A DNA stretch of 64,000 nt, taken from an uncultured Gammaproteobacteria bacterium (lineage in GTDB: Bacteria; Patescibacteriota; Patescibacteriia; Magasanikbacterales; UBA922). The stretch is taken from contig OZ246405.1 of NCBI GenBank assembly GCA_965231005.1, positions 231,204 to 295,203 of the forward strand, written 5' to 3'. Under the pieces are notes generated by a model. That model ran no database searches. It was not told the origin of the DNA and saw only the letters and a program-made list of their open reading frames with translations. Shown here piece after piece: positions 1 through 59,601 of this stretch (the first letter of the stretch is position 1; each line of letters begins with the position of its first letter). Both the position numbers and the translations under genes were made by a program.

Positions 1-454
1 TTTGCATTATAAAATGCTTTCTGACTTCCCTCTACTTTACAATGCGTTCCTTGTTTTTGCGCATCTCCTGTTGTGAGTCGCACTGCAAACCGTGTAATAC
101 TGTATGCACTTAGGATAATAAGCAGCCCAATGGCTGAATTAACTATTACTGACTTTCCATGAGCAATTTTCTCTTCATTTCCACCAGAAAGCAAAATCAA
201 ATATCCACCATATACCATATATATTAGAACAAGTGTCCCGAGCAAACCTAGTGCTGCTTTAATAATATTTGCAACAATAAGGCGTGGGTCATTTGGCTTT
301 CCAAGATCTGCTCCATCTGAACCAGCAAAGGCTGCATTCTGCTTTTTCAAATCATCTTTGAAGTCTGCAGATACATATTCTGGCTGTGCAAAGGAGAAAA
401 AAAGTAAACTAACAACAAAAAGACTTGCTGTTAAAAATATTATTGATGTCTTTT
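1..454 (-). CDS. TrbC/VirB2-like T4SS pilin family protein (paralog 1), C-terminal part runs off the window edge
   Basis: My own minus-strand translation from ATG at 454 gives MILKKTSIIFLTASLFVVSLLFFSFA...IYMVYGGYLILLSGGNEEKIAHGKS.... It has a signal peptide plus the family core motif YGGY-x-W/L-x-T/S-x-GG-NEE followed by a second hydrophobic helix. It is absent from the ORF track because it is open at the window edge. Confidence 0.7.
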
Positions 455-460
455 TTAAAA

Positions 461-898
461 TCATAGATCAAGAGGTATTGCCTGATAAGAATTTTCATTG
501 ATTTCGTATGCCTTGTCTGACGAAACAGTATTCTGAATCCGTTTTGCAACAAATGTTGTAATAGCATAGGAACTTAAGATAATTCCAAGCCCTATTACTG
601 CCCCTGTCATTGTTTTCTTTGCTTTCAAAATTTGATCTTGTTCACCATCTGCAGTAATAAGCCAATATCCTGCGAGCACAATAAGCCCAGTTACCATCAT
701 TCCTACAAGACCAAGGGCTATCTGGATAATTTCTGCAACAATGAGTTGAGGCGGTTTTGGGTTTTCAACTTCAAAACCTGCTTTTCCACCTCCTGCTTTT
801 AGCTGTCCACCCACATCGGCCCGAAGATCGCGCTGTGCACTTGCTGGCTGAAATATGAGCAAGCATGCGAACAATGAAACAATGAGAATCTTTTTCAT
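461..898 (-). CDS. TrbC/VirB2-like T4SS pilin family protein (paralog 2)
   Basis: ORF track 461..976 trimmed to the internal ATG at 898 (MKKILIVSLFACLL...), which abuts the stop of the next gene at 900. It has a signal peptide, the core LIVLAGYWLITADGEQDQILKAKK and a second TM helix. Confidence 0.75.
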   Translation of the reverse strand: MKKILIVSLFACLLIFQPASAQRDLRADVGGQLKAGGGKAGFEVENPKPPQLIVAEIIQIALGLVGMMVTGLIVLAGYWLITADGEQDQILKAKKTMTGAVIGLGIILSSYAITTFVAKRIQNTVSSDKAYEINENSYQAIPLDL

Positions 899-899
899 A

Positions 900-1295
900 T
901 TATTTAATTTGAGAAGCAGGCGCTGTTGTCTTTTCAATAACTTTTCCAACAACAAAATTACTAATTGCATATGCACTAAGTGTCACAACAAGCCCGATAA
1001 GTGAACCAGTAATAATTTTCTTTGCTTGATCAATCTGATCGGCTTCACCACGAGCAGTCATCCAAAGATAGCCTGCGTACACCATAAGTGCTGTAAAAAT
1101 AACACCAATAAGTGAAAGTGCTGAACTTACTACTGTACCAATGGTCTCTGCAAAGGTTGTTTCACTTGCTTCTTTAAATCCAGCTTCTTTTCCTGCTTTA
1201 TGTACATCGTCAATACCAAGATTTACTGCCCCAACAGATGCAAATGGTGCAAAAGCTAGTAGTGCCAATGAAAACATGAATAATATCTTCTTCAT
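900..1295 (-). CDS. TrbC/VirB2-like T4SS pilin family protein (paralog 3)
   Basis: 131 aa with a signal peptide. The core LMVYAGYLWMTARGEADQIDQAKK is followed by a hydrophobic helix. This is the conserved pilin motif seen in all array members. Confidence 0.8.
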   Translation of the reverse strand: MKKILFMFSLALLAFAPFASVGAVNLGIDDVHKAGKEAGFKEASETTFAETIGTVVSSALSLIGVIFTALMVYAGYLWMTARGEADQIDQAKKIITGSLIGLVVTLSAYAISNFVVGKVIEKTTAPASQIK

Positions 1296-1305
1296 ATAAT
1301 ACTAA

Positions 1306-1689
1306 TTAAAGATCTTTAAATCGAGAAGTAACAAAGGTGGTGATTGCGTATGCACTTACAACAATCACAATTCCAATTACTGCTGCAATAATAATTTGCT
1401 TTGCTTTGTCAATCTGATCTGCCTCTCCACGCGCTGTCATCCAGAGATATCCTGCATACACCATCAAAATAAGGAAAATAAGACCCACAAGTGTGAGAGC
1501 AGCATTTATGATTCCACCGATAATTGTTGGAAGATTTGTATTTGTGTTTGCGCCGGCCTTTTGACCGATTGCATTCAGATTTTGTCCTGCATTTTTCAAT
1601 CCTTGCGTTGAAGCAGCCTGCATTCCAAAAAGGAGGACAAACGAACAAAGTAGAACACTCATTATCTTTTGATATTTTTGTATAAACAT
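1306..1689 (-). CDS. TrbC/VirB2-like T4SS pilin family protein (paralog 4)
   Basis: 127 aa. The core LMVYAGYLWMTARGEADQIDKAKQ is near-identical to paralog 3. An alternative start is the MSVLL codon at 1662. Confidence 0.8.
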   Translation of the reverse strand: MFIQKYQKIMSVLLCSFVLLFGMQAASTQGLKNAGQNLNAIGQKAGANTNTNLPTIIGGIINAALTLVGLIFLILMVYAGYLWMTARGEADQIDKAKQIIIAAVIGIVIVVSAYAITTFVTSRFKDL

Positions 1690-1798
1690 AAAACGATTTT
1701 ACTATCATTAGTTAATAGTTACTAGCGAACTAGGCAAGATTGTTCTTACAAGATCTAATAACTATTAGCTAGTAGCTAATAACTAGTATATCACAGAC

Positions 1799-2413
1799 CT
1801 AACAACTACTGGTACACTGAACACCTACCACACCACCATCCCATTCAAACTCTGTAAATTGATCTCCTGAACTTGTCTTTTTTGCATCTGTTTCACAAGC
1901 AGAATATGTTTTAATACTACAACCCCAGACAGCGATTTCAGCCTGACCAAAAATTTGTGGTTTTCCAATTCTATCTCTGCAACAACCCAATGCCTCACCA
2001 CCCAACTGCTGTTGCTGTGTGGTTTGAGTAGCTTTTTCTTGATTGAGAACCCTACTTGTAATAAATGATGTAATGGTAAATCCACTCACAACAATTGCAA
2101 GACCAATGATCGATCCAATAATCGTATCTCGTGCTTTTGTAACATTTTCATCATTTCCTCTTGCTGTCATCCAACGAAATCCTGCATATACCATGAGAAT
2201 GAGAAACGCAAGACCAACAATTGAAAACGCTGTTTGAATCACTCGTGCAACAACCTCTGGTACTTCTATATCTGTTTCAGAGCCTGCCTTTTTTGCTACA
2301 ATATTTAAATTCCCTTCACTAGAATTGAATGTTTGTCGAGCTAAAACATTTCCTGCTGGCGCTAGCATAAGGAGCATAAAGAAAAAAATTGTTCCCTTAC
2401 GTAACCACGTCAT
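1799..2413 (-). CDS. T4SS pilin family protein with C-terminal Cys-containing extension (paralog 5)
   Basis: 204 aa with a signal peptide and the core MVYAGFRWMTARGNDENVTKARD. It has a C-terminal tail of about 70 aa with 7 Cys. Confidence 0.75.
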   Translation of the reverse strand: MTWLRKGTIFFFMLLMLAPAGNVLARQTFNSSEGNLNIVAKKAGSETDIEVPEVVARVIQTAFSIVGLAFLILMVYAGFRWMTARGNDENVTKARDTIIGSIIGLAIVVSGFTITSFITSRVLNQEKATQTTQQQQLGGEALGCCRDRIGKPQIFGQAEIAVWGCSIKTYSACETDAKKTSSGDQFTEFEWDGGVVGVQCTSSC

Positions 2414-2416
2414 AGA

Positions 2417-2905
2417 CTACTTATTAGCATTACATTCTTCTAAGGAATTGAACAAATTCCCCACGCAAGATCCTTTTGGATCAAACTTTGTACACTGGCC
2501 ATTGGCTGCACAATACTGAACATCTTCTGGCGTTGCTTGTTGAGGACCAAGACGTTTGAAGACGAATGTTGTAATGGTGTATGCAGCAACCACAATGATA
2601 ATCCCAACAATTGCTGCAATAATAGTATCTTGCGCTGTTCGAATTTCATCTTCATTCCCTCTTGCAACCATCCACCTGAACCCTGCATAAAGAATATGAA
2701 CAAAAAAGATAATTGAAATTAAACCAAGTGCTGTCCCAATAATGTTCCCAATAATTCCAAGAACATTTTCTTGTTTTTCTCCTGCTTTATATAATCCTGC
2801 ACGCCCGGCAGTTTCTTCTAGGCCAAGTTGTGCATGAGCTGTTGGAGCAAATACAAAAAATATAAATGTGAAGGAAAGAAGTATTGTGAATATTTTTTTC
2901 TTCAT
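2417..2905 (-). CDS. T4SS pilin family protein with C-terminal Cys-rich tail (paralog 6)
   Basis: ORF track 2417..2926; the start is placed at ATG 2905 (MKKKIFTILLSF..) to avoid overlap with the upstream stop. The core is ILYAGFRWMVARGNEDEIRTAQD and the tail is QYCAANGQCTKFDPKGSCVGNLFNSLEECNANK. Confidence 0.7.
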   Translation of the reverse strand: MKKKIFTILLSFTFIFFVFAPTAHAQLGLEETAGRAGLYKAGEKQENVLGIIGNIIGTALGLISIIFFVHILYAGFRWMVARGNEDEIRTAQDTIIAAIVGIIIVVAAYTITTFVFKRLGPQQATPEDVQYCAANGQCTKFDPKGSCVGNLFNSLEECNANK

Positions 2906-2916
2906 ACAGAATTTTT

Positions 2917-3855
2917 TTAGTCGCAAACCCTTGCACTACAATTTCCATCACTTTTGCAAAAAGTATTCTTAGGGCAATGTGAATCAACTTTACAACTACT
3001 CTGAACACACAGACCAGACAAACAATTCGAATTTGACTTACATATTTCACCTTTTTTCAGCAGTTTTGGAGTACAAACACCCGAAATACAAATATTACTT
3101 TGACAATCTACATTTTCTTTACAGAATTTGCCACCAGGAAGTGGTGTACACAATCCTGATGAACAATTATTACTTTTACAATGATAGTTCAAACCACAAG
3201 CTTTTCCACCATCGAGTTGACCACCAACACACACACCTTTTACACATGCATTTCCTGCACATTCAGCTTTAACAGTACACTTCTTTCCTGCAGGAAGTGG
3301 CGCACAAAAACCAGATACACATCCACCGAGTTTACATTCATCAGTACTTGTACACGCTGCTCCACCCAAGAGCGTTCCACCTGAAGAACTTCCTTGGTCC
3401 TGTGTTGGAGAACCACCAACTGTTTTTTCTGGTTGATAATTTCCACTAATGCTTTGGAACAAGAATTGTGTTATTGCGTAGGCAGACAGAATAACAATGA
3501 TTCCTGCAACTGCGCCAAAAATAGTTTTCTTTCCATCTTCAACTTGTTCTTCGTCTCCTCGCGCTGTCATAACCATAAATCCACCATACAGCATAAGCGC
3601 AAAGAACAGTACTGAGACAAGTGAGAGAACACTTCCAAGAACATTTCCAACGAGCTGTGGAATATTATCGTTCTGTCCTTTTTCTTGATAGATTCCTGCC
3701 TCACCAGCAACTGCTTTTAGTCCATAACTTTTTATTGGAGCAAGTTCTTGCGCAGAAACAGTGGAAAACAAACCAAACATCATCACTAGTAATGCCGTCA
3801 TTATAATTGTTACTCTGAATATTTTCATACCAGTATACAAAAATTGAGGTTTCAT
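2917..3855 (-). CDS. T4SS pilin family protein fused to a repetitive cysteine-rich module domain (paralog 7)
   Basis: 312 aa with a signal peptide and the core LMLYGGFMVMTARGDEEQVEDGKK. The C-terminus of about 170 aa has at least 5 repeats of C-x5-C-x4-C-x4-C, for example CKSNNCSSGLCTPLPGGKFC. Confidence 0.8.
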   Translation of the reverse strand: MKPQFLYTGMKIFRVTIIMTALLVMMFGLFSTVSAQELAPIKSYGLKAVAGEAGIYQEKGQNDNIPQLVGNVLGSVLSLVSVLFFALMLYGGFMVMTARGDEEQVEDGKKTIFGAVAGIIVILSAYAITQFLFQSISGNYQPEKTVGGSPTQDQGSSSGGTLLGGAACTSTDECKLGGCVSGFCAPLPAGKKCTVKAECAGNACVKGVCVGGQLDGGKACGLNYHCKSNNCSSGLCTPLPGGKFCKENVDCQSNICISGVCTPKLLKKGEICKSNSNCLSGLCVQSSCKVDSHCPKNTFCKSDGNCSARVCD

Positions 3856-3940
3856 TAACTAAGAAGTTGGAAACTAGAAATTAGAAATTGGGGCTTTTTC
3901 AAAGATATCTTATATTGGTTCCCTAATTTCAAATTTCTAA

Positions 3941-4561
3941 TTATTGTATTAAGTTCTTACCCTTAATATCCCCTTCACAAATTCCTTTTGAAAAACCAGA
4001 TCCACCATCTGCACACTTTTTACCTTCTGCTAGCTCCTCACATGAATAGAGCACACCTTTTTTTACAATACAATATTTCTTAGCAGCGATCGGATCAACA
4101 TTTCCTTGGGCAGCTCCCTTTGGCTCATTCAATTCTCCTTTTACTGCTTTGAAAATAAGTTGGGTAAGCGCGTATGCGGAAATAACAATCACAAGACCAA
4201 GAATTGCGCCTAAAATTGTTTTCAATGCTTTTGTTGACTTTTCTTCGTTCCCTCTTGCTGTCATCCACATAAACCCACCATACAGCATAAGCAAAAAGAA
4301 AATAACAGACGTAAACGTAAGAGCAGCACCAATCAAATCTCCTGCTCTTGCTGCAAGTGTTGGATTTCCACCTTTTTCATTGTACAAACCAGCTTCCCCA
4401 CCTGTTTCCTCGAGTCCAAATGCTGCAGACGCTGGAGAAACAAACCCAACAAAAACAAACGCAATAATAAAACACAGCAGTATTGCACTGACATGTCCCA
4501 ATACTGCTTTATGCCATCGCTTACTGCTGTCAGATTGACTGTGTTTTATATATTCACGCAT
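3941..4561 (-). CDS. T4SS pilin family protein with C-terminal Cys-containing extension (paralog 8)
   Basis: The ORF track starts at a TTG (4594); the first ATG is at 4561 (MREYIKHSQ...). The core is LMLYGGFMWMTARGNEEKSTKALK. The C-terminal tail has several Cys (CIVKKGVLYSCEELAEGKKCADGG...). Confidence 0.7.
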   Translation of the reverse strand: MREYIKHSQSDSSKRWHKAVLGHVSAILLCFIIAFVFVGFVSPASAAFGLEETGGEAGLYNEKGGNPTLAARAGDLIGAALTFTSVIFFLLMLYGGFMWMTARGNEEKSTKALKTILGAILGLVIVISAYALTQLIFKAVKGELNEPKGAAQGNVDPIAAKKYCIVKKGVLYSCEELAEGKKCADGGSGFSKGICEGDIKGKNLIQ

Positions 4562-4597
4562 ATGCTTCCACTTGCATGAGAAAATCAATATCAAACC

Positions 4598-5005
4598 TTA
4601 TGGATTTTGCTGCTGACCTGTTTGATAATTTTGTCCTGTTGTAGCTTGGTAAAGGTTTTTAACAACAAAGTTAGTAATTGCGTATGCACTCAAGACAATT
4701 GCAAGTCCAATAACTGCAGCACTAAGGCGCTTCTTTGCAGAAGATACTTGGTCTTCGTTTCCACCTGCTGTCATCCATTCAAATCCAGCCCAGATTATGA
4801 TAACAACCGTCAAAATTCCAAGCAAACTAAGCGCAACACGAATAATATTTGCTACTTGTAGACGAACGTCTGTATTCCCAAGTCCAGTTGCTGACCCATA
4901 ATTCAACCCAAGAATATCATTTGATGTAGCAAGAGCATCTGGCACGAGTGCAAATAGCCCAAGAGCAAATACACCTACCATGCCCAAAGCAAGATACTTT
5001 TTCAT
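4598..5005 (-). CDS. TrbC/VirB2-like T4SS pilin family protein (paralog 9)
   Basis: Start trimmed to ATG 5005 (MKKYLALGMVGVFALG..). The core is IIIWAGFEWMTAGGNEDQVSSAKK followed by a hydrophobic helix. Confidence 0.75.
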   Translation of the reverse strand: MKKYLALGMVGVFALGLFALVPDALATSNDILGLNYGSATGLGNTDVRLQVANIIRVALSLLGILTVVIIIWAGFEWMTAGGNEDQVSSAKKRLSAAVIGLAIVLSAYAITNFVVKNLYQATTGQNYQTGQQQNP

Positions 5006-5119
5006 ATATATAGAAATTATGTTTATGTGTGCATACAAGAAATAGTGTATGCGCGCGTAAACACAATTGAAGAGAAAGCGTAGAGGGGAAGCCCCCCTCT
5101 ACACAATCTTTTACTTTTA

Positions 5120-5650
5120 CTATTTGAGAATATCAGCTGCGTCACCAGAGCCAGTAGCTGTAGACAATTCTCGGAGTACAAACGTTGCAATTGCCCATGC
5201 GGACATGATAATTGCCAATCCAATAATACCTTGGATAATACGTTTTCTCGCTTCTGTAACTTTTTCTTCATTACCACCAGCGGTCATCCATTGGAAACCA
5301 CCAATCAAGATGATAACAACAGAAACAATACCAAGTAAACTCAAAGCAACATTGATAATCTTTGCTGCTGTTGTCCGTAAATCTGTTCTACCAAGTGATG
5401 TTTTAAGACCTGTATCAACGGTTTTGATTCCAAACACATCTTCACTAGATGACTTAGAACTATCGTTTTGTGTAAGAACACACTTACTCGCTGAATTACA
5501 TGTGTAACCTTTGTCACAAGGATTCTTTGAATCACACTTGTCAGGATTTGTCGCACTAGCTATTCCTGGGGCAAACATGAGTACCATGGCTGCGGTTGCA
5601 ATAACTGCGAAAATCGTTTTGAATCGTGCAAGTTTTACGACTGCGTACAT
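5120..5650 (-). CDS. T4SS pilin family protein with N-terminal Cys-rich insert (paralog 10)
   Basis: 176 aa with a signal peptide, then PDKCDSKNPCDKGYTCNSASKC, then the core VIILIGGFQWMTAGGNEEKVTEARK. Confidence 0.75.
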   Translation of the reverse strand: MYAVVKLARFKTIFAVIATAAMVLMFAPGIASATNPDKCDSKNPCDKGYTCNSASKCVLTQNDSSKSSSEDVFGIKTVDTGLKTSLGRTDLRTTAAKIINVALSLLGIVSVVIILIGGFQWMTAGGNEEKVTEARKRIIQGIIGLAIIMSAWAIATFVLRELSTATGSGDAADILK

Positions 5651-5779
5651 ATGCTCACCCCCTTTCGTTGTAAGATATATTTACTCATAAAGAAATAAAT
5701 AGCCTAAAAGGCCAGAAGGAAAGAAAAACGAACATTTCCCTTTCCTTTTCTACCTTTTAGAAAAAAATAAGTAAAATAA

Positions 5780-6166
5780 CTACGCTCCAGCCTGGAGACC
5801 AAGTCCTGAAATAACTGTACTCAGTATAGCATAGCTTCCAAAAATAATGAACAATCCAAGTACTGCCCACATCATGATTGTTTTTCCTTTTGCAACTCTA
5901 TCTGCATTACCACCACTTGTCATCCACAAAAATCCACCATAGACAAATACCACAAGTGTGAGTGATCCAATTAATGCCAGTCCGGCTTTCACTATTCCTC
6001 CAATAATAGCTGCCATATTTGTCTGCCCTTCTGGATTCTCAACTGTTCCACCTATAGGATTCACAAGAGGAACTATTCCTTTTTGCTTTGCAACTTGTGC
6101 AAATGCCGGAGCAGCACTACTAAATAATATTAGTATACTAATTGCTATTATTGTTTTCTTCATCAT
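5780..6166 (-). CDS. TrbC/VirB2-like T4SS pilin family protein (paralog 11)
   Basis: 128 aa with the start MMKKTIIAISILILF (signal peptide). The core is VVFVYGGFLWMTSGGNADRVAKGKT. Confidence 0.8.
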   Translation of the reverse strand: MMKKTIIAISILILFSSAAPAFAQVAKQKGIVPLVNPIGGTVENPEGQTNMAAIIGGIVKAGLALIGSLTLVVFVYGGFLWMTSGGNADRVAKGKTIMMWAVLGLFIIFGSYAILSTVISGLGLQAGA

Positions 6167-6225
6167 ATATCTTCTTAAAAGAGCCTTTTAAGCCTTTACA
6201 GCTTTTAAGGCATTTATGGCTTTTT

Positions 6226-7353
6226 CTACTTTGTTTGTTCTAACGTTCCAACAGCTCTAAATGCATCGCTGACTTGAAGAGCATCAAGAACAAAATCAAC
6301 TACAAGATATGCACTAAATAAAATAATCATACCAAGAATTGCTGCAACAAGAGTCTGTTTCCCCTGCGTAATTCTTTCTTCCATTCCAAAGGATGTCACC
6401 CATAAAAATCCACCGTAGACAAAAAATCCAAAGGCAATCACACCAACAATCCCAAAGAATGAACGACCAAACCGAATGAACAACTCTATAATATCATTTA
6501 TATCATCACATGTCCCTTCAAATGCACATGGTGGGAGAATCTGACTTGGATATTCTGCCTCACTTGGTGCTTTATACTTACTTTTTAAATACGCTTCTAT
6601 ATTTTCATCTTGAATTTCTTTCAGTTCTTCGCTGGTTAATGCACTCTTCAATTTGCACGACTCAGAACTTGTCACATATGCACAATGACTATGCTTTATA
6701 CAGTTATTTCTATCTTTATTTAATTTTGTACAATCAAATTTAGCTTTTACCTGTTCTTCAAAACCAACAAAATAAATAGCAAGTTGTTCCTTAACAAATC
6801 TAAAACGGATTCTCTTTTTGACATTTACTGTTTTAGACGGGCCTGTTGTTTTTACCTGACATGTTGAATCCTCTTTCTGTGAGAGGGTATAGACAAAATC
6901 ACTAGCAGTCGATTTTGGACCATCTTGTGCCCAAGAGACAAATCCCTCTTTGGAGCCGCAGGCAGACAGTTCTCTATATACATCATGGGACTTCCAAGGG
7001 GCACCAACAGTTGCTGGAGTACCTTTTGCCAAATCATCAAAATTAATACCTTTTACACCCTCATTTACTTCGATACAAAATTCCTTACCCGTTGTTGGAT
7101 CAAGATTTTCATCATAATTCTTGTATACATGAAGTTTGTTCCCTATCTTAGGCTCTTTTGCTGTATCTGCCACAAAGACTGCAAATAGCTTTCCCTTTGG
7201 TGTTTCTTTTAATCCGAATTGCTTTACACAATTTATTTTTGCTTCATATGCTGCTACAGGCTGGACAAATAAAAAAGGAAGAAAAAGAAGTGCAGCAAAA
7301 AATACTACCTTCCAAAGTGATACTTGTTGTAATTTTTGTACGTTCAACATCAT
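6226..7353 (-). CDS. T4SS pilin family protein with large N-terminal Cys-containing extracellular domain (paralog 12)
   Basis: 375 aa with a signal peptide. An N-terminal domain of about 280 aa has about 10 Cys. The C-terminal pilin core is FFVYGGFLWVTSFGMEERITQGKQ with a TM helix. Confidence 0.7.
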   Translation of the reverse strand: MMLNVQKLQQVSLWKVVFFAALLFLPFLFVQPVAAYEAKINCVKQFGLKETPKGKLFAVFVADTAKEPKIGNKLHVYKNYDENLDPTTGKEFCIEVNEGVKGINFDDLAKGTPATVGAPWKSHDVYRELSACGSKEGFVSWAQDGPKSTASDFVYTLSQKEDSTCQVKTTGPSKTVNVKKRIRFRFVKEQLAIYFVGFEEQVKAKFDCTKLNKDRNNCIKHSHCAYVTSSESCKLKSALTSEELKEIQDENIEAYLKSKYKAPSEAEYPSQILPPCAFEGTCDDINDIIELFIRFGRSFFGIVGVIAFGFFVYGGFLWVTSFGMEERITQGKQTLVAAILGMIILFSAYLVVDFVLDALQVSDAFRAVGTLEQTK

Positions 7354-7356
7354 ATT

Positions 7357-8736
7357 TTAGAATGTTTGTTGAATAGTTATTGCAGCATTTTTGATAATAG
7401 CAATATCACGCTTCAATGGATTTTCCCCATCAGCATAAGACTGTAAGAACTGATCAATCATAAGTTTCATCGCGTCATTTGTTGTATCAATATCGTTTCC
7501 TCTATACCAATTTTCTGCTGTTAATACACCAGTCACAAATGGTCCTAAGATATCGTCCTTTGCCTGATCTGTAATTTGGGATCGAAGTGGTGTAAGACGT
7601 CCTGTTGCCTCGGTATATTCAGCGATTTTTTCTGGTGTAGTAATAAACCGAACAAAATCCCATGCAATATTCTGATTTGCAGATTTTCCTACAACAGATT
7701 CTACCCAATAGTTTGCAACATTTTTTGGTTCTCCAGGGTTCAGCTGTGGCATTGGCAATACACCCAAACTCATCTGTGGTGCACGAGAAGTAATTCTCTC
7801 AGCGTCAAATGCAAATCCAATGTAAAATGCAGAACGACCTGCTGTAAATGATTCAAGTGCGTCTCCTTGTGAAGCATTCCAGCTATATGCTTCTTTTGTA
7901 GGTCGAGCAAAATCAGTATAAAAACGAAGCGCCTCTCGTGTAGGATGTGCTCCTGGATTTTCTTCTATTCCATTTGCAAATGTGACACTCCCTTTGTGTG
8001 TAACAGGAACATTGTTCTGCATCAATAGCAGTGCCATAATATCTGGTGAATTTGTAATATTATTTCCTGTACCTAAGGCTATTCCTGATTGGATAATATT
8101 TCCATTTGCATCAAACCGTGTTGTTGCACGAACGGCTTCTAACAATTCTGCCCATGTTGTTGGAGGAACAGCAATACCTGCACTATCTAATAAATCTTTA
8201 TTGTAATAAACGGCTAATGTATCTACAGAAAGTGGAAGACCCAAAATATTATTTGAAAAAATCACATCTTCTCCAACTGTTTTTACAAAAGCAGAAGAAA
8301 CAATGTTTGGTGTTGGCATTGCATTGACCTCGTTTGTTACAACAACCTCTTTTGCATATTCACCTTTAATTGACACATTTGAAACCTGCACACTTCCAGG
8401 CATTGAAGACAGCCGTGGTGCGTATTTATTGAGCCAACGAACGTGAAGTGAAACAATATCTGGTGGTACATCATCTGCAAGGGAATTTACTAACAATGTA
8501 TCAAACTCATCATACCGAACCTGACGAATATTGATCGTTACATACGGCTTTAACTGTTTATACTGTTCAGCAAATGTCCGCAAAACACTCACATCATTAA
8601 ATACTGTCCAGTATTCAATATTTACTGGTTTGATAGATGCTTGTTGGTCGTCTGAAAGACCTTTACAACCTAAACCTGTTGTTATTAACAACAGAAAGAG
8701 TAAAGGAAATAAAAATATTTTTTTATTCATAATCAT
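7357..8736 (-). CDS. ABC-transporter-type extracellular solute-binding lipoprotein (family 1, sugar-type)
   Basis: 459 aa with a lipobox LITTGLGC. The pattern LAVYYNKDLL...PTTWAELLEAV is typical of SBP_bac_1 substrate-binding proteins. It is embedded in the pilin array with a 3-nt spacing to both neighbours. Confidence 0.7.
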   Translation of the reverse strand: MIMNKKIFLFPLLFLLLITTGLGCKGLSDDQQASIKPVNIEYWTVFNDVSVLRTFAEQYKQLKPYVTINIRQVRYDEFDTLLVNSLADDVPPDIVSLHVRWLNKYAPRLSSMPGSVQVSNVSIKGEYAKEVVVTNEVNAMPTPNIVSSAFVKTVGEDVIFSNNILGLPLSVDTLAVYYNKDLLDSAGIAVPPTTWAELLEAVRATTRFDANGNIIQSGIALGTGNNITNSPDIMALLLMQNNVPVTHKGSVTFANGIEENPGAHPTREALRFYTDFARPTKEAYSWNASQGDALESFTAGRSAFYIGFAFDAERITSRAPQMSLGVLPMPQLNPGEPKNVANYWVESVVGKSANQNIAWDFVRFITTPEKIAEYTEATGRLTPLRSQITDQAKDDILGPFVTGVLTAENWYRGNDIDTTNDAMKLMIDQFLQSYADGENPLKRDIAIIKNAAITIQQTF

Positions 8737-8739
8737 AAT

Positions 8740-10224
8740 TTAGGGTATTTGTGAAACGCACGAACCCACTTTCTCCGTTGTCTTGCCATCACTAGATTTC
8801 TTCTTTTCACAGATATGATCTGAAGCACAGCTAATATCTGTCTGGCATTTTACTCCCTCTTTTCCGTTCGTACACTTATTATCTACAGGATTACAAATAT
8901 TACTTTTACATTCACTTCCCACGCTACAAGATTCCCCATCTTTCTTCTTAGTTGCTTTCTTCTTAGTTCCAATTTTCTCACATGTGCCTGGCTTATCTCC
9001 AGGACCTACGTTTGACTTAGAACATATTAATCCTTTTGCACAACCGCTATTATACAAGCAAACAGTTCCTTCCTTTCCATCTGTACACACTCCTTCTTCA
9101 AGAAGACTCTTAAGACTACATATTCCTGTATCACAGTCTTTTCCAGTACTACATTGTTGTACTTTACCAGATGAATCAACACACTTATTGTTCTTACATT
9201 CACCCGATTCACACTGTGTGGACTTCGTACAAGAACTGCCAATTTTTCTTTTGACTGTGTCAGTACTCGCTTGATTGGTTGCAGCAGGTTCAAACGATTC
9301 AAATGGATCAAAGACTAGGTCAACAATTGCATAACTTGAGAAAATAACAAACATTCCAGCCACTGCCCAGGTAATAACATCTTTTGCTTTGCTAATATCT
9401 TGTTTTGTTGCACCACCACCAACAACTGTTGAACCCATCATGAGAAGAAAACCACCATAAATAAACATGGCAAATGCAATGGTTCCAAGAAGACCCATTG
9501 CTGTTTTAATGATTCTTCCAATGAGTTTTTGTACGGTTGTACCAGGAGTAAATTGGTTTAAATCTTTTAATAACTTTGCCTGATCAGCAGTAAGTAAATC
9601 ACTGTGCTGATACTTCTTTGCATCTTTTTCAATAGCATCAACAGCCTTTTTTACCTCTCCTGCAGCTCCCAAAGCTGCTTTTTTTGCCTTCTCATATGCC
9701 TCAGTTTGGGACTTTTTTAGTTTTTCCAAACCTTCTTTACAAAGTGGATCATGCGATTGAGTTTTTTTTGATGTATAACCAGTACTAGTATATGATGGAC
9801 ATGTCCCTGGATTGTTATCAATCGCACTCTGCAGATTACCCCCCTTGTAATATAAACAACAGACAAAAGCATCCTTAACTGCACAGGTCAGTTCGTGCGT
9901 ATGATCCAAGTATGAAACTGTTTTTTTATAACCTGAGCATTCTTTTTGTTTAACTTCCACAGGAAGATCTGAATTTAAGTACGCCTTGGAAAAGGCATAA
10001 CCTTTCTTTTTGGGAGGACATTCTTTATTAACAGAATCAGAAAAATCAATCAAATCTAAATTTTTGGGTAAATCCTTCCATGCTTGTAAACCTGATACAT
10101 TACATTCTTTTCCTTTAATAGTAAGAATACACTCACACACTGATGCCGCACTAACAGGAGGGACAAAAAACACACCCATCAATAGTATTGAGAGAACTAA
10201 TCCTATTCTGAAGAAATACTTCAT
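8740..10224 (-). CDS. Large T4SS pilin family protein with N- and C-terminal Cys-rich domains (paralog 13)
   Basis: 494 aa with a signal peptide. The central pilin core is FAMFIYGGFLLMMGSTVVGGGATKQDISKAKD plus a TM helix. The C-terminal ~170 aa has the same C-x-S-x2-C-x-SG-x-C modules as paralog 7 (CTKSTQCESGECKNNKC...). Confidence 0.7.
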   Translation of the reverse strand: MKYFFRIGLVLSILLMGVFFVPPVSAASVCECILTIKGKECNVSGLQAWKDLPKNLDLIDFSDSVNKECPPKKKGYAFSKAYLNSDLPVEVKQKECSGYKKTVSYLDHTHELTCAVKDAFVCCLYYKGGNLQSAIDNNPGTCPSYTSTGYTSKKTQSHDPLCKEGLEKLKKSQTEAYEKAKKAALGAAGEVKKAVDAIEKDAKKYQHSDLLTADQAKLLKDLNQFTPGTTVQKLIGRIIKTAMGLLGTIAFAMFIYGGFLLMMGSTVVGGGATKQDISKAKDVITWAVAGMFVIFSSYAIVDLVFDPFESFEPAATNQASTDTVKRKIGSSCTKSTQCESGECKNNKCVDSSGKVQQCSTGKDCDTGICSLKSLLEEGVCTDGKEGTVCLYNSGCAKGLICSKSNVGPGDKPGTCEKIGTKKKATKKKDGESCSVGSECKSNICNPVDNKCTNGKEGVKCQTDISCASDHICEKKKSSDGKTTEKVGSCVSQIP

Positions 10225-10232
10225 ACTATTTA

Positions 10233-11108
10233 TTATGCAAAGAGTGATGCAATATTATCTTTCATCTCTTTGTCTTTTAGTGCAAAATGAATAGACGTCT
10301 TCAAGAGAGCAAGTTTATTTCCAGTATCAAAGTAAATTCCATCATATTCATAGGCATAAAATGGCTTTTTCTTTGCAAGTTTATTTGCTGCATCAGACAA
10401 CCAGACCTCGCCATCACGTCCACCTTTTTGTTTTTCAAGAATTGGCCAAATATCTTTTGTAAATATGTATCTCATTCCTCCAACGATAAGACCTTGTGGA
10501 GAAACATTTCGCAATTTTGGCTTTTCTTCAAATTTCTTTACTTTAAATAGTCGAGAATCCTTTGTTGGAGTAGCATATACATTTCCGTATTTTGTCATTG
10601 CTTCCCGATCTTGAATGCGTTGAACACCAATCACTGATGCTTTTCTCTTATAAAAGACATTGAGGATTTGTTTTGTAACTGGAACACGAGAATCAATAAT
10701 ACTGTCACCATCTGAAAATGCAAATGGCTCATCTCCTATAATATCTCGAGCACAGAGTAATGCGTCTCCATTTCCAAGTGGTTTTGATTGTCTTGTATAA
10801 ATAAAACGTGCCTTCTTTGACAATGCTACCAAGTCAGCAATACGAGAAAACTTTCCTTTCTTTTTCAAATACTGCTCATAATCAAGATTACGATCAAAAT
10901 GATCTTCAATCGCACGCTTTTGCGAACTTGTAACAAATATAATTTCTGTAATTCCACTTGCAACCATTTCCTCTACAATATATTGCACAACTGGCTTATC
11001 CAGCACTGGCAACATTTCTTTTGGCATGGCCTTTGTTGCTGGCAAAAAGCGCGTCCCTTGCCCAGCAACCGTAATAACTCCCTTTCTCACACGAAGAGAT
11101 TTTGACAT
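10233..11108 (-). CDS. galU: UTP-glucose-1-phosphate uridylyltransferase
   Basis: VITVAGQGTRFLPATKAMPKEMLPV is the classic GalU N-terminal motif. The start was trimmed to ATG 11108 (MSKSLRVRKGVIT). Confidence 0.85.
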   Translation of the reverse strand: MSKSLRVRKGVITVAGQGTRFLPATKAMPKEMLPVLDKPVVQYIVEEMVASGITEIIFVTSSQKRAIEDHFDRNLDYEQYLKKKGKFSRIADLVALSKKARFIYTRQSKPLGNGDALLCARDIIGDEPFAFSDGDSIIDSRVPVTKQILNVFYKRKASVIGVQRIQDREAMTKYGNVYATPTKDSRLFKVKKFEEKPKLRNVSPQGLIVGGMRYIFTKDIWPILEKQKGGRDGEVWLSDAANKLAKKKPFYAYEYDGIYFDTGNKLALLKTSIHFALKDKEMKDNIASLFA

Positions 11109-11169
11109 AAAAAAACTATTCTTAAGTGGGAATAGTATAACACACAATGATTGTGAAATAAAACACGTT

Positions 11170-11628
11170 TTATTCTTTTATTTGACGAATCATAACATCC
11201 ACCAATTGCTCTGCCCTTTGCATAATTTCATCCTTGCTCAGATCTTGTTCTTGTTCACTCAAAATCTTGATCTGTTCGCGGACCAAGTCATGTCTCATAT
11301 TCTCAAGTTCTGTTTGATATGTAGATATTTTCTCTTTTAATATTTCAATTCTTTTTTGATCTTGTTTTACAGAATCTGGGTCATCTGCATCAGCGAGCTG
11401 AAGCTGAGCGCGAAGCTGCTGAAGTGCTTGTTTTACCTGCTGCATATTCAAAAAAATATTCTGCATCTGTTTTTTACTACTTTTAACTTCTTTTACCAAA
11501 AGATCAGCACGCTCAAGTGCGGCTGCGGCCTTTAGCTCTGGATCAACCTCACCCTCTCGTTGTTCTTTTGATTCATGCTGAGGTTCTCGTTCCCGAGTTT
11601 TTCTCAATATTTCCTTTTCTGATTCCAT
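11170..11628 (-). CDS. hypothetical coiled-coil protein
   Basis: 152 aa, charged, predicted coiled coil, with no recognisable motif. Confidence 0.5.
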   Translation of the reverse strand: MESEKEILRKTREREPQHESKEQREGEVDPELKAAAALERADLLVKEVKSSKKQMQNIFLNMQQVKQALQQLRAQLQLADADDPDSVKQDQKRIEILKEKISTYQTELENMRHDLVREQIKILSEQEQDLSKDEIMQRAEQLVDVMIRQIKE

Positions 11629-11753
11629 ACTAAAATGCTTTAAATGCCCTAAAGGCTTTAATAAGTATAGATTATTTTTTAGAAAAACAAAAACAGGACT
11701 TAGAAAATCCTGCTTTTATAGCCTTTAAGGCCTTTAGAGCCTTTACGGCATTT

Positions 11754-13541
11754 TTAGAGGAATCCTCCAGCTTGTAATTCCCACAACTTCTTATACGTTC
11801 CTTTCTTTTTCTTCAAGAGCTCTTTGTGCGATCCATCTTCAATAATCTTTCCATCTTCCATAACAATAATCCGATCCATCTTCATAATTGTTGAAAGTCT
11901 ATGAGCAATAACAATCACAGTCTTTCCTTTCATAAGTTTATCTAGAGCATCTTGGATAAACCCTTCAGATTCAGAATCAAGGCTTGACGTTGCCTCGTCT
12001 AAAATGAGGATTGGAGCATTTTTTAGCATTGCACGAGCGATCGAAACACGCTGACGTTCACCACCAGAAAGCTTTACCCCACGCTCTCCAACATAGGTAT
12101 CATATCCATCTGGAAAACTTGAAATAAACTCATGACAATGGGCTGCCTTTGCAGCAGCAATAACTTCTTCATCTGTTGCATCAGGATTTCCATAACGAAT
12201 GTTTTCCATAAGTGTTCGATGAAACAAAATTGCATCTTGCGGAACATAACTAAGTTGTGAGCGTAAGCTTTCAAGTGTGACTTGAGAAATCCGCTGACCA
12301 TCAATAAACACTTTTCCTCTTGTTACATCGTGGATACGAAGGAGCAATTTAACAATGGTAGATTTTCCAGCACCTGAATGACCAACAAATGCGAGTCTAC
12401 TTCCTGCACTGATCTTCAGACTAAAATCTGAAATAACCTGACGCGTTTTGTTGTAGCGAAAATCAACATGATCAAATTCAATTTTTCCTTTTTTAATAAC
12501 GAGTGGTTTTGCTCTTCGTGAATCAACAATTTCATGTGGTGTATCAAAAATCTCAGCCATTTCTTCTGCATCTGCAATGCGTTCATAATAATGTCGAATC
12601 ATTTTTCCAACATCCCACAACTGATGAAAAATGGTAAGCAAGTATGCCTGCAAAAGCACAAAGTCACCAACAGTAATAATACCCTTTGTCCAAAGATCAA
12701 TTGCAATGTAGAAAATTCCAAACTCAAGAAAAATCATGAGTAAAATCTGTACTGCTTCAAATGCCGTAGATAAATCCCAAGTAAATTTTCTGAGTTTTCT
12801 CAATGTTTCGGTAACATCTGCAAAACTCTTTTTTTCTCGTTCGTATCCTGTAAACAATTTCACATTTGAGTGATTTGTAATTGTATCTGCAAGCACTCCC
12901 GTCACTTTACTGTCCAGCCGGCTCCGCTCAAAATCATATTTTAATTTGTATCTGCTAAATGCATAGTTCAATAAAAATATAATAATGACCCAACCAAAAA
13001 TGCTGACGCTAAAAATAGGATGTTCAAAAAATAAGACAACAATAATTGCAGCAATTGATGTAAGCATCGGAACAAGTTCCCATGTAATAATGTCTGCAAT
13101 CCCTTCGAATGATCTGTAAAATCTATTTACCCGTTTTACAAGCGAACCAACAAAATGATTTTGGAAAAATGAAAAAGAGTGTTTGTGCAAATACCCAAAA
13201 CAAGTGTTTGCAAGTTCTGTCATAAGTGTTGTCTGATAATAGCTGTTAACAAATCCTGAAATACGCCAAAATAACCAGCCTGCAAGATACACCATGAGGA
13301 TGGTGACAATAACTGAAAGTAATTCTGCTGGAACATTTCCAACAGCAACTGTGCCAGTTACAATATTAAAAAATTTCTTGTAGAGAATTGGCCCCACCTG
13401 ATTAAGAAGTGATGCAATAATAACTGAAACAATCAAAACAAAGCCCGCTATGTTATGCTGACGCATGTGTTGCCAATAAATTTTGTATGTAAGCTTTGTA
13501 AGTCGTTTCATAAAATGAGAAAGAGGCATATGATGCCCCAA
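11754..13541 (-). CDS. ABC transporter ATP-binding/permease fusion (exporter, MsbA-like)
   Basis: 595 aa with six N-terminal TM helices. It has the ABC signature LSGGERQRVSIARAML and the Walker B ILILDEATSSLD. An alternative start is ATG 13511. Confidence 0.85.
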   Translation of the reverse strand: MGHHMPLSHFMKRLTKLTYKIYWQHMRQHNIAGFVLIVSVIIASLLNQVGPILYKKFFNIVTGTVAVGNVPAELLSVIVTILMVYLAGWLFWRISGFVNSYYQTTLMTELANTCFGYLHKHSFSFFQNHFVGSLVKRVNRFYRSFEGIADIITWELVPMLTSIAAIIVVLFFEHPIFSVSIFGWVIIIFLLNYAFSRYKLKYDFERSRLDSKVTGVLADTITNHSNVKLFTGYEREKKSFADVTETLRKLRKFTWDLSTAFEAVQILLMIFLEFGIFYIAIDLWTKGIITVGDFVLLQAYLLTIFHQLWDVGKMIRHYYERIADAEEMAEIFDTPHEIVDSRRAKPLVIKKGKIEFDHVDFRYNKTRQVISDFSLKISAGSRLAFVGHSGAGKSTIVKLLLRIHDVTRGKVFIDGQRISQVTLESLRSQLSYVPQDAILFHRTLMENIRYGNPDATDEEVIAAAKAAHCHEFISSFPDGYDTYVGERGVKLSGGERQRVSIARAMLKNAPILILDEATSSLDSESEGFIQDALDKLMKGKTVIVIAHRLSTIMKMDRIIVMEDGKIIEDGSHKELLKKKKGTYKKLWELQAGGFL

Positions 13542-20096: not shown

Positions 20097-20315
20097 ATGA
20101 AATATAAAAAAGAAAAACAATTTAATGCTGTCATTTGGAAAGAAAAAGGTGGGTATGTTTCTGTTTGTCAAAATAACGATGTTGCAAGCCAAGGGAAGAC
20201 AGTACTATCAGCTGTAAAAAATCTGCAAGAAGCATTGGAACTTTATTATGAGGAAGACTGCATAAAGGCAATAATTACATACAAAATTGTTAAGCAGCAA
20301 CTTGCATTAACGTAA
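20097..20315 (+). CDS. hicB: HicB-family antitoxin (UPF0150)
   Basis: 72 aa; KEKGGYVSVCQNNDVASQGKTVLSAVKNLQEALELYYEE matches the HicB short-form pattern. Confidence 0.65.
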   Translation: MKYKKEKQFNAVIWKEKGGYVSVCQNNDVASQGKTVLSAVKNLQEALELYYEEDCIKAIITYKIVKQQLALT

Positions 20316-20322
20316 AGAGGGC

Positions 20323-20550
20323 ATGCCACCACAATATACAAGGAGGGACGTTGTTAAAGTCCTACAAAAAGTAGGTTTTATTTTTGTATCGCAAAAAGGA
20401 AGTCATATGAAGTTTCAGATAGTAATAAATAACAAGAAATACACAACAATTGTTCCAAATAAAAAAACAATCCGTTATGGAACGTTTCGCAAAATTCTTA
20501 AACAGGCAAATCTAACCGAACAAAAATTTATTGAACTACTTAATCTCTAA
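20323..20550 (+). CDS. hicA: HicA-family mRNA interferase toxin
   Basis: 75 aa; VVKVLQKVGFIFVSQKGSHMKF...RYGTFRKILKQANL matches the HicA/YcfA pattern. It starts 8 nt after hicB. Confidence 0.65.
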   Translation: MPPQYTRRDVVKVLQKVGFIFVSQKGSHMKFQIVINNKKYTTIVPNKKTIRYGTFRKILKQANLTEQKFIELLNL

Positions 20551-24300: not shown

Positions 24301-24607
24301 ATTCCTCTGCGCCTAAATCTTCGTCACTTACTGCTTCATCTGCATCTACATCTGCTGATGTTGCTTCTTCAACAGATGCTTGTGCTCCAGTAGAAGGAGT
24401 TGCTGAAGAATTTGTTTCGTCTGCAGAAGCCTCAGATGTTGTTTCTGAAGTTTGTGCAGAAGAATCATCAGATTGTGCAAGAGCTGGAACAGACAACAAA
24501 AAAACAGCAGTAAAAATGCTGATTATTATTAATAAGTATGCTTTCTTGTTAAAGAGACCAAATAAAATACGTGACTTTGCGCTCAAAGGCGGAGTTGCAG
24601 ATTGCAT
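21314..24607 (-). CDS. Very large (1098 aa) low-complexity, highly charged secreted/anchored protein with Pro/Gly-rich C-terminus
   Basis: The start is at ATG 24607 (MQSATPPLSAKSRILFGLFNKKAYLLIIISIFTAVFLLSVPALA). Long E/K/R/D/F-rich repetitive segments (KEEFKKEVREKDGRIEIKEERKVRFDDKKDDFREERK...) are followed by a PPxGG-rich tail. Confidence 0.65.
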   Translation of the reverse strand: MQSATPPLSAKSRILFGLFNKKAYLLIIISIFTAVFLLSVPALAQSDDSSAQTSETTSEASADETNSSATPSTGAQASVEEATSADVDADEAVSDEDLGAEESTVLPDSPFYSLKRLQRGFKEAFTFDSVKKAELKLKHATQELADARELIEEHADDPGAARAAAKAFEKFEGKLKDINRAAKKIQEKRQGGDQGADKLLDDVLDKQIKQQKVLAHVEKRILKFASKSEAGQALEKIQEVKKRAAGHVGELISKVDDENALVARMDRVLQRQPGSDFKEMRNVEVLTRLEDAVPQQAREAIRRAQDNAFKRFAHSAERMSPRERAERFEKYAHNMEGDETRHMEIFDRLKQFDDVPDDIREKLEQAKDIAARRFQNKFESFEEDGFDQGFRKRMQQRAFDHIRENDGDVIKVRVMEEMRNRVQFDDTELQAEMEKQHEASIDKFKAAFPDANEDAEEFRRLSKKMAENPDPTTFRLLQQLEEKVLSDPSKREFIERMEKEAKQQFAAKAREQGEKFFDEIASNNPEDIEIFKKLQFDFAENPDEFFGPHPFEDGPPGIGPDGFGPPPFGHGPPPGFERFFDQAIKKQSEHVFENIREIDDPEIFAHFQKKFEGLDDGALRELERRQGNVGQAFNSKINFFRQQDDFGEQFRRDNEQERQRLEEEIKNKIDAAIEAGEDVEGLKQELNNRRSEFQERTHKKRQQIFGDLLNNNPFCDERCRNEESKRFQQKLEFDRRNEHEVDVFFELSRELDEFSDRRHREDLEKEREEFERKMREEFGDDHDGDEDFDRGRPPFPGERDGNFERPTFDHDRPEPNGDRGFFKKVFDRDLGPPKFDSDDVNRIAPVRGDFRPPNGDDINKIRKFNEEKREERKEEFEHFNDEHPKNIIPSPPKPDTRFIREHLEDSRKDRPSFNPRDVKKEEFKKEVREKDGRIEIKEERKVRFDDKKDDFREERKPDFKREERREEFKHEESRKDFPSVDPRDKRKEEFKKNERSQPRPNISKPDRPQDLPQPPKFVPNERPDNVRPAPQPSQPKPPSFSGGDRQPPKPPSGGDKPPQSSGNFTPPPPQISGPPSGGGPPPGGPGPGGNNGPKPPQ

Positions 24608-24848
24608 ATGTTTATTTTTATGTTTATTTTTTCTCACCGATGCGAGATTTTCAGTATATTTTGTACTTAAAAACCTTTTTTTGACACGGTGAGTACTTGT
24701 ATTATAGCACATTTTTGGGTGTTTGTCAAGCCCTCTGGCTACAAATTGTATACACTAGTGTAGACAAATATTCGTTTTAGGAACAAACCTTGATTTATCA
24801 CGGCCTACATGATAATGTCCAAGCACAAAACCAACAAGGGGGTTTAGC

Positions 24849-26307: not shown

Positions 26308-26451
26308 ATGAATGCAATACTTTACAGTATGATATCACAAAAGTCAATTTGACATTCAATTATCAGTGTAGTAATCTATGTATAACAATTCAAAAGTATC
26401 AAGAAGGACAGAGGGAAATGGCCCGTTGACGTCCTACCAACCTAGTGCACA

Positions 26452-26560
26452 GTTTGACAACCTCGACTCACTGCGATAAGGTGGTACATCCATCCCAGCA
26501 AGGGAACGATACGCTCTAAAAGAGAAAAAAATCTTCTTGCTGCTTGCAAGTTTTTTTGAT
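26452..26560 (+). ncRNA. candidate small RNA transcription unit (promoter to terminator, no ORF)
   Basis: TTGACA-N17-TAAGGT at 26452-26480 is followed by about 80 nt with no ATG-initiated ORF. This is followed by the hairpin cttgctgcttgcaag and a T7 run at 26536-26558. Confidence 0.3.
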
Positions 26561-59216: not shown

Positions 59217-59219
59217 GAT

Positions 59220-59597: not shown

Positions 59598-59601
59598 ACG
59601 T

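Follow-up and report, generated by a model that had tools for sequence, protein, structure and literature searches.

We have analyzed a stretch of DNA of 64,000 nt, from here on the window, at the left end of which lies, on the minus strand, an array of 13 genes for pilin-like proteins of the Pfam family T4SS_pilin (PF18895; T4SS, type IV secretion system). By its sequence relationships the array belongs to a Patescibacteria genome, the nearest relatives being Magasanikbacteria (class ABY1). The other copies of the array that we found are 100% identical and come from metagenome contigs; the contig L001 (ENA ERZ930061) is identical to the window and extends 9 kb past its left end, where the window start truncates the last array gene. 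Four array members were used to scan species-representative genomes, which gave 79 related loci, the window's own genome of 1.23 Mb not being among them. These closest loci are found in metagenome-assembled genomes (MAGs) belonging to the candidate phyla radiation (CPR), and the titles that name a lineage are mostly of Candidatus Magasanikbacteria. The counts of collinearity and orthology given below were taken over 53 related loci, mostly from this last group.

All 13 proteins, numbered here from P13 (first gene) to P1 (last gene), reach the PF18895 gathering score of 26.6 bits (whole protein) in a Pfam scan, with 27.0–50.5 bits and E values from 2e-13 to 5e-6, and a hidden Markov model derived from their common core picks up exactly these 13 members across the 64 kb. 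The initial annotation had described fourteen consecutive paralogs of the CPR-type T4SS pilin family. The family, the common direction and the shared helix-loop-helix core (far beyond chance, PF18895 being passed by all 13) are borne out, but the count has to be lowered to 13, because the remaining minus-strand gene (7357..8736), which interrupts the row, codes for a SBP_bac_1/SBP_bac_8 solute-binding lipoprotein without the pilin core. The genes are packed in an operon-like manner, as had been proposed, with intergenic gaps from −10 (an overlap) to 129 nt, and the start of P1 overlaps the stop of P2 (ATGA). In L001 P1 is complete at 174 amino acids (aa) and no further member is found beyond it, confirming the end of the array.

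At the head is P13 (8740..10224, minus strand as all the array, 494 aa, 27.0 bits). Its signal peptide is followed by an N-terminal domain of ~230 aa that has 10 Cys, and after the hairpin core comes a C-terminal tail of 186 aa, whose 20 Cys are arranged as C-x5-C-x4-C-x4-C units. P12 (6226..7353, 375 aa, 33.1 bits) has before its hairpin core an N-terminal domain of ~260–280 aa, with 10 Cys and the conserved motif LPPCAFxGTCxxIN. P11 (5780..6166, 128 aa, 27.9 bits) is a minimal member, and P10 (5120..5650, 176 aa, 50.5 bits, E value 2e-13) bears a 4-Cys insert after the signal peptide. P9 (4598..5038, 39.3 bits) is again minimal, with 135 aa from the ATG at 5005 (the open frame reaches 5038). 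Then come the members with C-terminal tails: P8 (3941..4594, 206 aa from the ATG at 4561, 30.6 bits) with a tail of 66 aa and 4 Cys, P7 (2917..3855, 312 aa, 33.7 bits), in which six 4-Cys units (24 Cys) make up a tail of 176 aa behind the core, P6 (2417..2926, 162 aa from the ATG at 2905, 33.0 bits) with 4 Cys in the tail, and P5 (1799..2413, 204 aa, 38.3 bits) with a tail of 82 aa and 6 Cys. P4 (1306..1689, 127 aa, 37.2 bits) and P3 (900..1295, 131 aa, 36.0 bits) are minimal, P2 (461..898, 30.1 bits) has 145 aa from the ATG at 898, and P1 (1..464, open reading frame (ORF) 3–464, 33.1 bits) has the last 20 of its 174 codons beyond the window start. Most of these traits had been recognized in the initial annotation, i.e., the minimal members of 127–146 aa, the Cys tails of P5, P6 and P8, the repeats of P7 and P13, the insert of P10 and a P12 domain of ~280 aa, and they hold.

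The part that can be aligned in all 13 proteins is a two-helix core of 70 residues, with a mean pairwise identity of 38% (range 23–60%); outside of it the flanks are unalignable, in keeping with the complete divergence noted before, and the full-length identity of the members to P1 is 20–35%. In the alignment the members consist of a signal peptide and two hydrophobic helices with a short connecting loop, the make-up of PF18895, and the loop has the consensus W-M-T-A-x-G-N-E-E...K-A-K. In a conservation profile of 770 PF18895 members gathered from the related loci, G34, G42 and G60 were invariant at 99–100% and the loop was among the best-conserved parts. All 13 genes code for signal peptides with an AxA-type cleavage site, by which the proteins are predicted to be exported via Sec. 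The AlphaFold2 model of P4 (mean predicted local distance difference test, pLDDT, of 79, with block means of 87–96 over the core residues 61–120) shows a helical hairpin predicted with confidence, its two long helices being at residues 53–85 and 90–126, besides a short one and that of the signal peptide.

We have also compared the array with other pilin families. Sub-threshold matches of 11–22 bits to TrbC/VirB2 (PF04956, a profile of 98 positions with a gathering score of 27.9 bits) were found in eight of the 13 proteins (P2, P4 and P6–P11) and in none of the other five, and in P2, P4, P6 and P11 the alignments span nearly the full profile including the signal peptide. Close homologs outside the window give 25–27 bits (E value ~1e-5), still below 27.9. 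The family NF045849 (Mbov_0395, pilin-like, from a Mycoplasma integrative and conjugative element, ICE) matched seven of the eight proteins scanned, six pilin paralogs plus P1, with scores of 17.7–34.8 bits and E values of 1e-8 to 2e-3, all below its curated cut-off of 40 bits. A sequence search of the PDB with the 13-gene profile gave no match even at an E value of 10. At the level of sequence, the assignment to PF18895 as hairpin proteins of the VirB2/TrbC kind is supported. Type IV pilins of the PilA kind were considered and rejected, given the AxA signal peptides, the two helices and the lack of a prepilin motif.

The Cys residues outside the core are even-numbered throughout the window, the C-terminal parts having 2, 4, 4, 6, 24 and 20 and the N-terminal ones 4, 10 and 10. 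Among the orthologs the C-terminal counts are even in at least 91% at each position, and in at least 96% everywhere but at P9. In P13 the hairpin has a Cys-rich domain before it and another after it. Since disulfide-type domains thus flank the hairpin on either side, in the predicted topology both termini must be extracytoplasmic, facing outwards, and the conserved loop must face the cytoplasm. As to the nature of the modules, P7, with its C-x5-C-x4-C-x4-C units in the tail, gave 18.4 bits with DUF7107, below threshold, and a word-based homolog search with this tail retrieved nothing, whereas an exhaustive search of 1.84 billion representative proteins retrieved 340 relatives, typically large multi-repeat proteins. 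Several of them pass DUF7107, EB module or Dickkopf_N, a fusion to a PhoD phosphatase is among them, and PF18895 was found in none of the 10 relatives tested. The P7 tail is therefore a generic extracellular disulfide-rich module grafted on the hairpin, and from the sequence relationships the Cys-rich tails are grafted modules of the DUF7107/EB type. Matches of the P7 tail in the PDB (coronavirus spike) were dismissed as compositional. For the N-terminal domain of P12 only three homologs could be detected, with no sequence relative in the PDB, and its AlphaFold2 model (pLDDT 44.5, built on four sequences) was unusable and was not used.

In other CPR lineages the hairpin is found at the N-terminus of proteins of 600 to >3,300 aa. 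The giant ones (1,904 to >3,300 aa, with the hairpin at residues ~45–130) are at 3101–13095 of locus L004, 12581–18295 of L005, 9455–17976 of L081 and 3164–11742 of L083. They carry Big_5, TIG, fn3, FG-GAP and Laminin_G domains, and are usually paired with a Big_5 fusion of 600–860 aa just upstream.

The arrays of the relatives are collinear with that of the window. Related loci typically hold 9–15 genes of PF18895, up to 15, and when each member was assigned to its best-scoring window paralog the common order in the 53 loci was P13 P12 P11 P10 P9 (P8/P7/P6) P5 P4 P3 P2 P1, with a median Spearman coefficient of 0.986 and a minimum of 0.69. In the closest species the ortholog beats the best within-genome paralog at all 13 positions (186 vs. 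57 bits in the case of P12). Within the array the nearest paralogs are neighbors (the nearest to P9 is P10), therefore a trace of old tandem duplications. Gain and loss of copies is confined to the middle block P8/P7/P6. A P12 ortholog is present in 52 of the loci, a P11 ortholog in all 53, and a P13-type gene heads the array in 28. P6-type genes appear in only three, and so P6 is a lineage-specific duplicate of P8/P7.

Architecture is also kept by position. The N-terminal Cys domains are at the head (P13, P12 and P11), the C-terminal Cys tails in the middle of the array (P8, P7, P6 and P5), and P10, P9, P4 and P3 are bare hairpins. The orthologs of P10 (mean identity 52%, median length 155 aa) are mostly minimal, in those of P5 the C-terminal part has medians of 82 aa and 4 Cys, and the P7-type tails vary among species from 0 to 505 aa. 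The longest tracts shared between the DNAs of paralogs have 66–138 nt at 60–75% identity, too dissimilar to serve as substrate for gene conversion, and neither long identical repeats nor silent cassettes or invertible elements were found in the window array. The fixed order, orthology and architecture over 53 loci disfavor antigenic variation or fast diversification. The 13 genes are ancient positional orthologs, and on these comparisons we favor that they code for non-redundant components. A fixed collinear order with positional orthology is new relative to the published arrays.

One member is set apart by its translation signal. An extended Shine-Dalgarno sequence, GAAAGGGGGTGA (5655..5666, minus strand), ends 4 nt before the ATG of P10 and is the sole strong ribosome-binding site of the array, strength being measured as duplex energy against the canonical anti-Shine-Dalgarno and taken as strong at −9 kcal/mol or below. 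Among P10 orthologs the median energy is −14.0 kcal/mol and 85% reach the −9 kcal/mol limit, compared with 0–10% at the other 12 positions and 7% of the other window genes. The motif GAAAGGGGGTGA is kept in 44 related loci, and the remaining upstream region is not conserved. A terminator-like hairpin (5078..5104, minus strand), with seven G-C among its 12 pairs and a T-rich run behind it, comes directly after P10. In 13 of 55 loci the P10 orthologs have a similar hairpin after them, and no other position shows one more than three times. The largest intergenic gaps of the array also flank P10 (medians of 77 and 93 nt), and P10 is the best match to the family profile. A promoter scan gave matches no more frequent than in shuffled sequence. 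From this pattern we infer that P10 is probably the major subunit, made in bulk, and that the other twelve would be minor subunits of low abundance. By analogy, one abundant small subunit with many weakly translated ones would be the pattern of a pilus operon, and is harder to reconcile with passive anchors. The naming of a candidate major subunit from a conserved, predicted translation signal is new here.

The array belongs to a conserved locus, made up of a GalU-like gene, P13, the solute-binding protein gene, P12 to P1 and a convergent gene for a glycolipid glycosyltransferase. The solute-binding lipoprotein (7357..8736, minus strand) has 459 aa and a lipobox LGC, scores 83 bits with SBP_bac_8 and 77 bits with SBP_bac_1, and its gene is 3 nt from each neighbor. 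A homolog is present in 49 of the 53 related arrays, after the first member in 37, and no cognate permease was found nearby. Its NCBIfam matches are only weak, to sugar-binding proteins. Directly upstream of P13 is the gene of the GalU-like nucleotidyl transferase (10233..11147, minus strand; NTP_transferase, 94.8 bits), an enzyme of the UDP-sugar pyrophosphorylase kind with a homolog in 45 of the 53 loci. Beyond P1, and convergent to the array, L001 has at 11433–12515 (minus strand) a diacylglycerol glycosyltransferase of the MGDG_synth/UgtP type, found in 32 of the loci. Conjugative pili are protein-lipid assemblies, and by analogy a glycolipid link between the flanking enzymes and a filament is conceivable. 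Further along the window, at 21314–24712 (minus strand), there is a DUF5667 protein of 1132 aa, highly charged and of low complexity, with a Pro/Gly-rich C-terminus; DUF5667 proteins are near the array in 13 related loci.

We have searched for the machinery that could assemble such pilins. In a Pfam scan that covered the larger genes from 10 to 64 kb of the window, no VirB4, VirB6, VirD4, TrsD or PrgI was found, and there are no T4SS genes in the 9 kb past the left end or the 4 kb past the right end of the window. No T4SS gene is in the flanks of the 79 loci either, where the Walker-A proteins of at least 500 aa are limited to five FtsH, four PilB and a single ORF without annotation. In the published survey of Patescibacteria arrays, VirB4 is marked as present in five of six Magasanikbacteria genomes carrying the same array (PMC12102498, Table S1). 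For GCA_000990355.1 (GW2011_GWC2_37_14), its Table S3 gives TrsD-VirB4 at CDS 801–802 and three VirB2 calls, at CDS 461, 463 and 531, all flagged as not near virB4 and none made by PF18895 (PMC12102498). The locus that we found in GW2011_GWC2_37_14 (L066) has an 11-gene array, and the 10 members scanned all pass PF18895. As in ~240 rows of Table S3 every PF18895-based call is flagged as near virB4 (PMC12102498), and the L066 array is not listed among them, remote arrays seem to be largely outside the survey, as far as these rows represent it. Microgenomatia arrays adjoin trsD-virB4 according to the same source (PMC12102498).

An ICE or a prophage was rejected as the carrier of the array, given that the G+C content matches the surrounding genome and that relaxase, VirB4 and coupling protein are all missing. 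What many related arrays have nearby is an Xer-type recombinase, a lone gene of the housekeeping type. The window contains the replication-origin region (55485–59900), with dnaN (55485–56609) and dnaA (56883–58349) on the minus strand and rpmH, rnpA and yidD on the opposite one. From dnaA to the pilin array it is ~47 kb; T4SS genes have been described near dnaA in some of the Patescibacteria classes covered by the literature.

The best explanation of these data would be a conserved heteromeric surface structure of thirteen VirB2-like subunits, one major and twelve minor, with a T4SS encoded elsewhere as its assembly machine, a reading of the sequence to which we give about an even chance of being right. 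P10 would be the bulk building block and the other twelve would be low-abundance minor subunits. The subunits would be pulled from the membrane via the shared loop and polymerized into a short pilus-like filament, with the Cys-rich N-terminal domains (P13 and P12) and the DUF7107/EB-like C-terminal stalks (P13, P7, P5, P8 and P6) outside, contacting the host cell. For its assembly the filament would depend on a T4SS of the monoderm type (TrsD-VirB4), with genes in another part of the genome, and the embedded solute-binding lipoprotein may be a surface glycan-binding or assembly partner. Several findings weigh against this explanation. Of the two Pfam families that the initial annotation had expected, T4SS pilin is passed by 13 of 13 and TrbC/VirB2 by none at its cut-off, the best being P6 with 21.7 bits (E value 2e-4). 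T4SS genes are missing from the 54 kb on one side and the 9 kb on the other side of the array, and no VirB4-like ATPase is found in the flanks of the 79 related loci. The fusion of the hairpin to proteins of 1,900 to >3,300 aa in relatives is hard to reconcile with a packed filament. The duplex energies assume a canonical anti-Shine-Dalgarno, the 3' end of the 16S gene lying outside the window. To our knowledge, moreover, T4SSs of the Gram-positive type normally form no pilus.

Another explanation would be that the hairpin is an N-terminal two-helix anchor holding adhesins, stalks and enzymes on the surface of a wall-poor monoderm, nothing being polymerized and the pilin being so in name only. 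Its position at residues ~45–130 of proteins of 600 to >3,300 aa with Big_5, TIG, fn3, FG-GAP and Laminin_G domains is what such an anchor would look like, the hairpin fold is generic, and no T4SS gene is near any related array. However, P10, the sole member with a strong translation signal, is mostly a bare hairpin with nothing to display, five of the 13 (P3, P4, P9, P10 and P11) are minimal and cargo-free, and a passive anchor would not need a loop and helix glycines that are near-invariant in 770 members. Besides, in other classes the arrays are beside virB4 and essential. We find the anchor rather unlikely for these reasons, although it is the main rival. The proteins could also be taken for a generic two-transmembrane family unrelated to T4SS pilins, with a TrbC/VirB2 likeness that reflects hydrophobic composition; TrbC scores below the cut-off, the empty PDB search with the 13-gene profile and the weak matches given by many unrelated membrane families would fit. 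This is the least probable of the explanations, since the TrbC alignments of P2, P4, P6 and P11 run near the full profile including the signal peptide, with close homologs at E values of ~1e-5, a second independent T4SS-linked family (NF045849) matches, and PF18895 adjoins TrsD-VirB4 in other Patescibacteria.

The initial annotation had read the array as an expanded, diversified repertoire for antigenic variation or for varied hosts, which would mean interchangeable and quickly diversifying pilins. The paralogs are indeed wholly different outside the core, P7-type tails go from 0 to 505 aa with P8/P7/P6 copies gained and lost, and the survey, drawing a parallel to Bartonella and Anaplasma, has proposed a variable repertoire for the arrays of Patescibacteria (PMC12102498). 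But the order and identity of the positions are kept in 53 loci as fixed positional orthologs that outscore the paralogs, repeats between paralogs are only 60–75% identical, long identical repeats, silent cassettes and invertible elements are missing from the array, and there is one strong ribosome-binding site only, unlike what is expected of interchangeable alternatives, so that we consider this proposal very unlikely. The 13 hairpin proteins and the lipoprotein might also form a self-contained appendage that does not use a T4SS, with Sec/YidC alone or some unknown factor doing the assembly. In this lineage virB4 is not linked to the array, while the two are adjacent in Microgenomatia and Saccharimonadia, and the locus has its own conserved neighbors (GalU-like in 45, binding protein in 49 and MGDG_synth-type in 32 of 53 loci). 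Yet the locus conserves no candidate assembly ATPase or platform, and in the published table rows for a relative TrsD-VirB4 is given without a local pilin gene, as expected if a remote array supplies the pilins; such an appendage is improbable in our opinion. A broader conjecture, speculative and judged unlikely too, can be added to the conserved heteromeric structure that we prefer. The whole locus, from GalU through P13, the binding protein and P12–P1 to the glycosyltransferase, might be a distinct appendage system found all over Magasanikbacteria, a heteropolymeric protein-lipid filament of the major P10 and ~12 specialized minor subunits, which would have become genetically (and perhaps mechanistically) independent of the T4SS core, and for which the flanking enzymes of UDP-glucose and glucosyl-diacylglycerol would supply lipid, the lipoprotein being a receptor or a chaperone.

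The kind of feature is already known, since arrays of VirB2-like genes in Patescibacteria have been published (PMC12102498; PMC10633639). The survey reports 441 "VirB2 arrays" of 2–11 pilin genes each in 383 Patescibacteria assemblies, with a mean identity of 25% and a maximum of 54% (PMC12102498). Southlakia epibionticum has an essential array of six VirB2-like pilins inside its T4SS locus (PMC10633639; PMC12857230), and in cultured Patescibacteria the T4SS_pilin proteins rank with the unknown genes of highest expression (PMC10936435). With 13 genes and one interposed, the array agrees with the published definition of at least two VirB2/PF18895 genes in tandem or one non-pilin gene apart (PMC12102498), and it is likewise highly divergent (core identity of 38% on average and 60% at most, 20–35% to P1 over the full length). 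Like the arrays of S. epibionticum ML1 (SEML1_0006–0019), the "Sec-secreted array" of TM7x and those of the survey (PMC12102498), it consists of tandem, divergent and Sec-exported paralogs of PF18895 with low pairwise identity, sometimes interrupted by a non-pilin gene, in monoderm host-dependent bacteria. The arrays described there have 2–11 members (six in S. epibionticum) and are mainly from Microgenomatia and Saccharimonadia, beside trsD-virB4 in the examples considered, whereas here there are 13, far from T4SS genes and outside the virB4 neighborhood typical of S. epibionticum and Microgenomatia. The conserved solute-binding lipoprotein, the fixed gene order and the single member predicted to be strongly translated are further differences.

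The pilins VirB2, TrbC and TraA of Gram negative bacteria resemble these proteins in the cleaved signal peptide, the two helices with a short charged loop and the small size of the minimal members, and there is a weak similarity along nearly the full length of the profile. Here, in contrast, the scores are below the cut-off, the host is monoderm, there are thirteen paralogs instead of one, some with large extracellular domains, and neither adjacent VirB machinery nor a VirB5-type tip protein is present. The multi-copy VirB2 or Trw genes of Bartonella and Anaplasma also come from tandem amplification of a T4SS pilin gene, but those copies are recent and similar and are thought to give variation, while ours are ancient, with 23–60% core identity, and orthologous across species. 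The NF045849 family of Mycoplasma ICEs shares the ~80-residue two-helix hairpin in a monoderm T4SS context, as a single gene inside a mobile element and not as a multi-gene array, with scores below the cut-off here. With the type IV pilus operons (PilB and PilC of Streptococcus sanguinis) the analogy is functional only, a small major subunit plus minor ones with grafted binding modules; the fold and the assembly machine are unrelated, and here there is no prepilin-peptidase motif or single N-terminal hydrophobic helix. Among the systems that may let CPR bacteria adhere to hosts and feed from them, the T4SS with its pilin array is one of the few shown to be essential, in Saccharibacteria. The locus offers a fixed and ancient set of 13 subunit types, a candidate major subunit, grafted Cys-rich modules and a conserved lipoprotein partner. 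As arrays distant from virB4 seem to have gone unlisted in the survey, there may be more members in the family, and a greater variety of organization, than reported.

The rest of the window has other features worth recording. A S-adenosylmethionine (SAM) riboswitch (RF00162, 50.5 bits) at 26393–26515 (plus strand) is upstream of a 440-aa ORF (26643–27965, plus strand), which is G+C-rich, has no Pfam match and bears one of the few strong Shine-Dalgarno sites of the window. Three islands (16–18, 26–28 and 35.5–39 kb) have 48–54% G+C compared with ~37% in the genome; found in them are an aldehyde dehydrogenase (427 bits), a weak match to M20 peptidases and a pair of ~450-aa ORFs without annotation. 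Two transposases of the IS1595 family, at 28734–29648 (plus strand) and 31945–32817 (minus strand), are interspersed with these high-G+C islands, suggesting horizontally acquired genes. At 20097–20550 (plus strand) a HicA toxin gene (57.7 bits) comes after a 72-aa ORF that is the likely antitoxin. A protein of 243 aa (42769–43500, plus strand) has only the C-terminal helix-turn-helix domain of DnaA (49 bits), apart from the full dnaA. Finally, many of the related MAG records (L014, L016, L018 and others) are titled "uncultured Gammaproteobacteria bacterium" and yet hold arrays of the Magasanikbacteria type, collinear with the window, so that these titles look like bulk mislabels.

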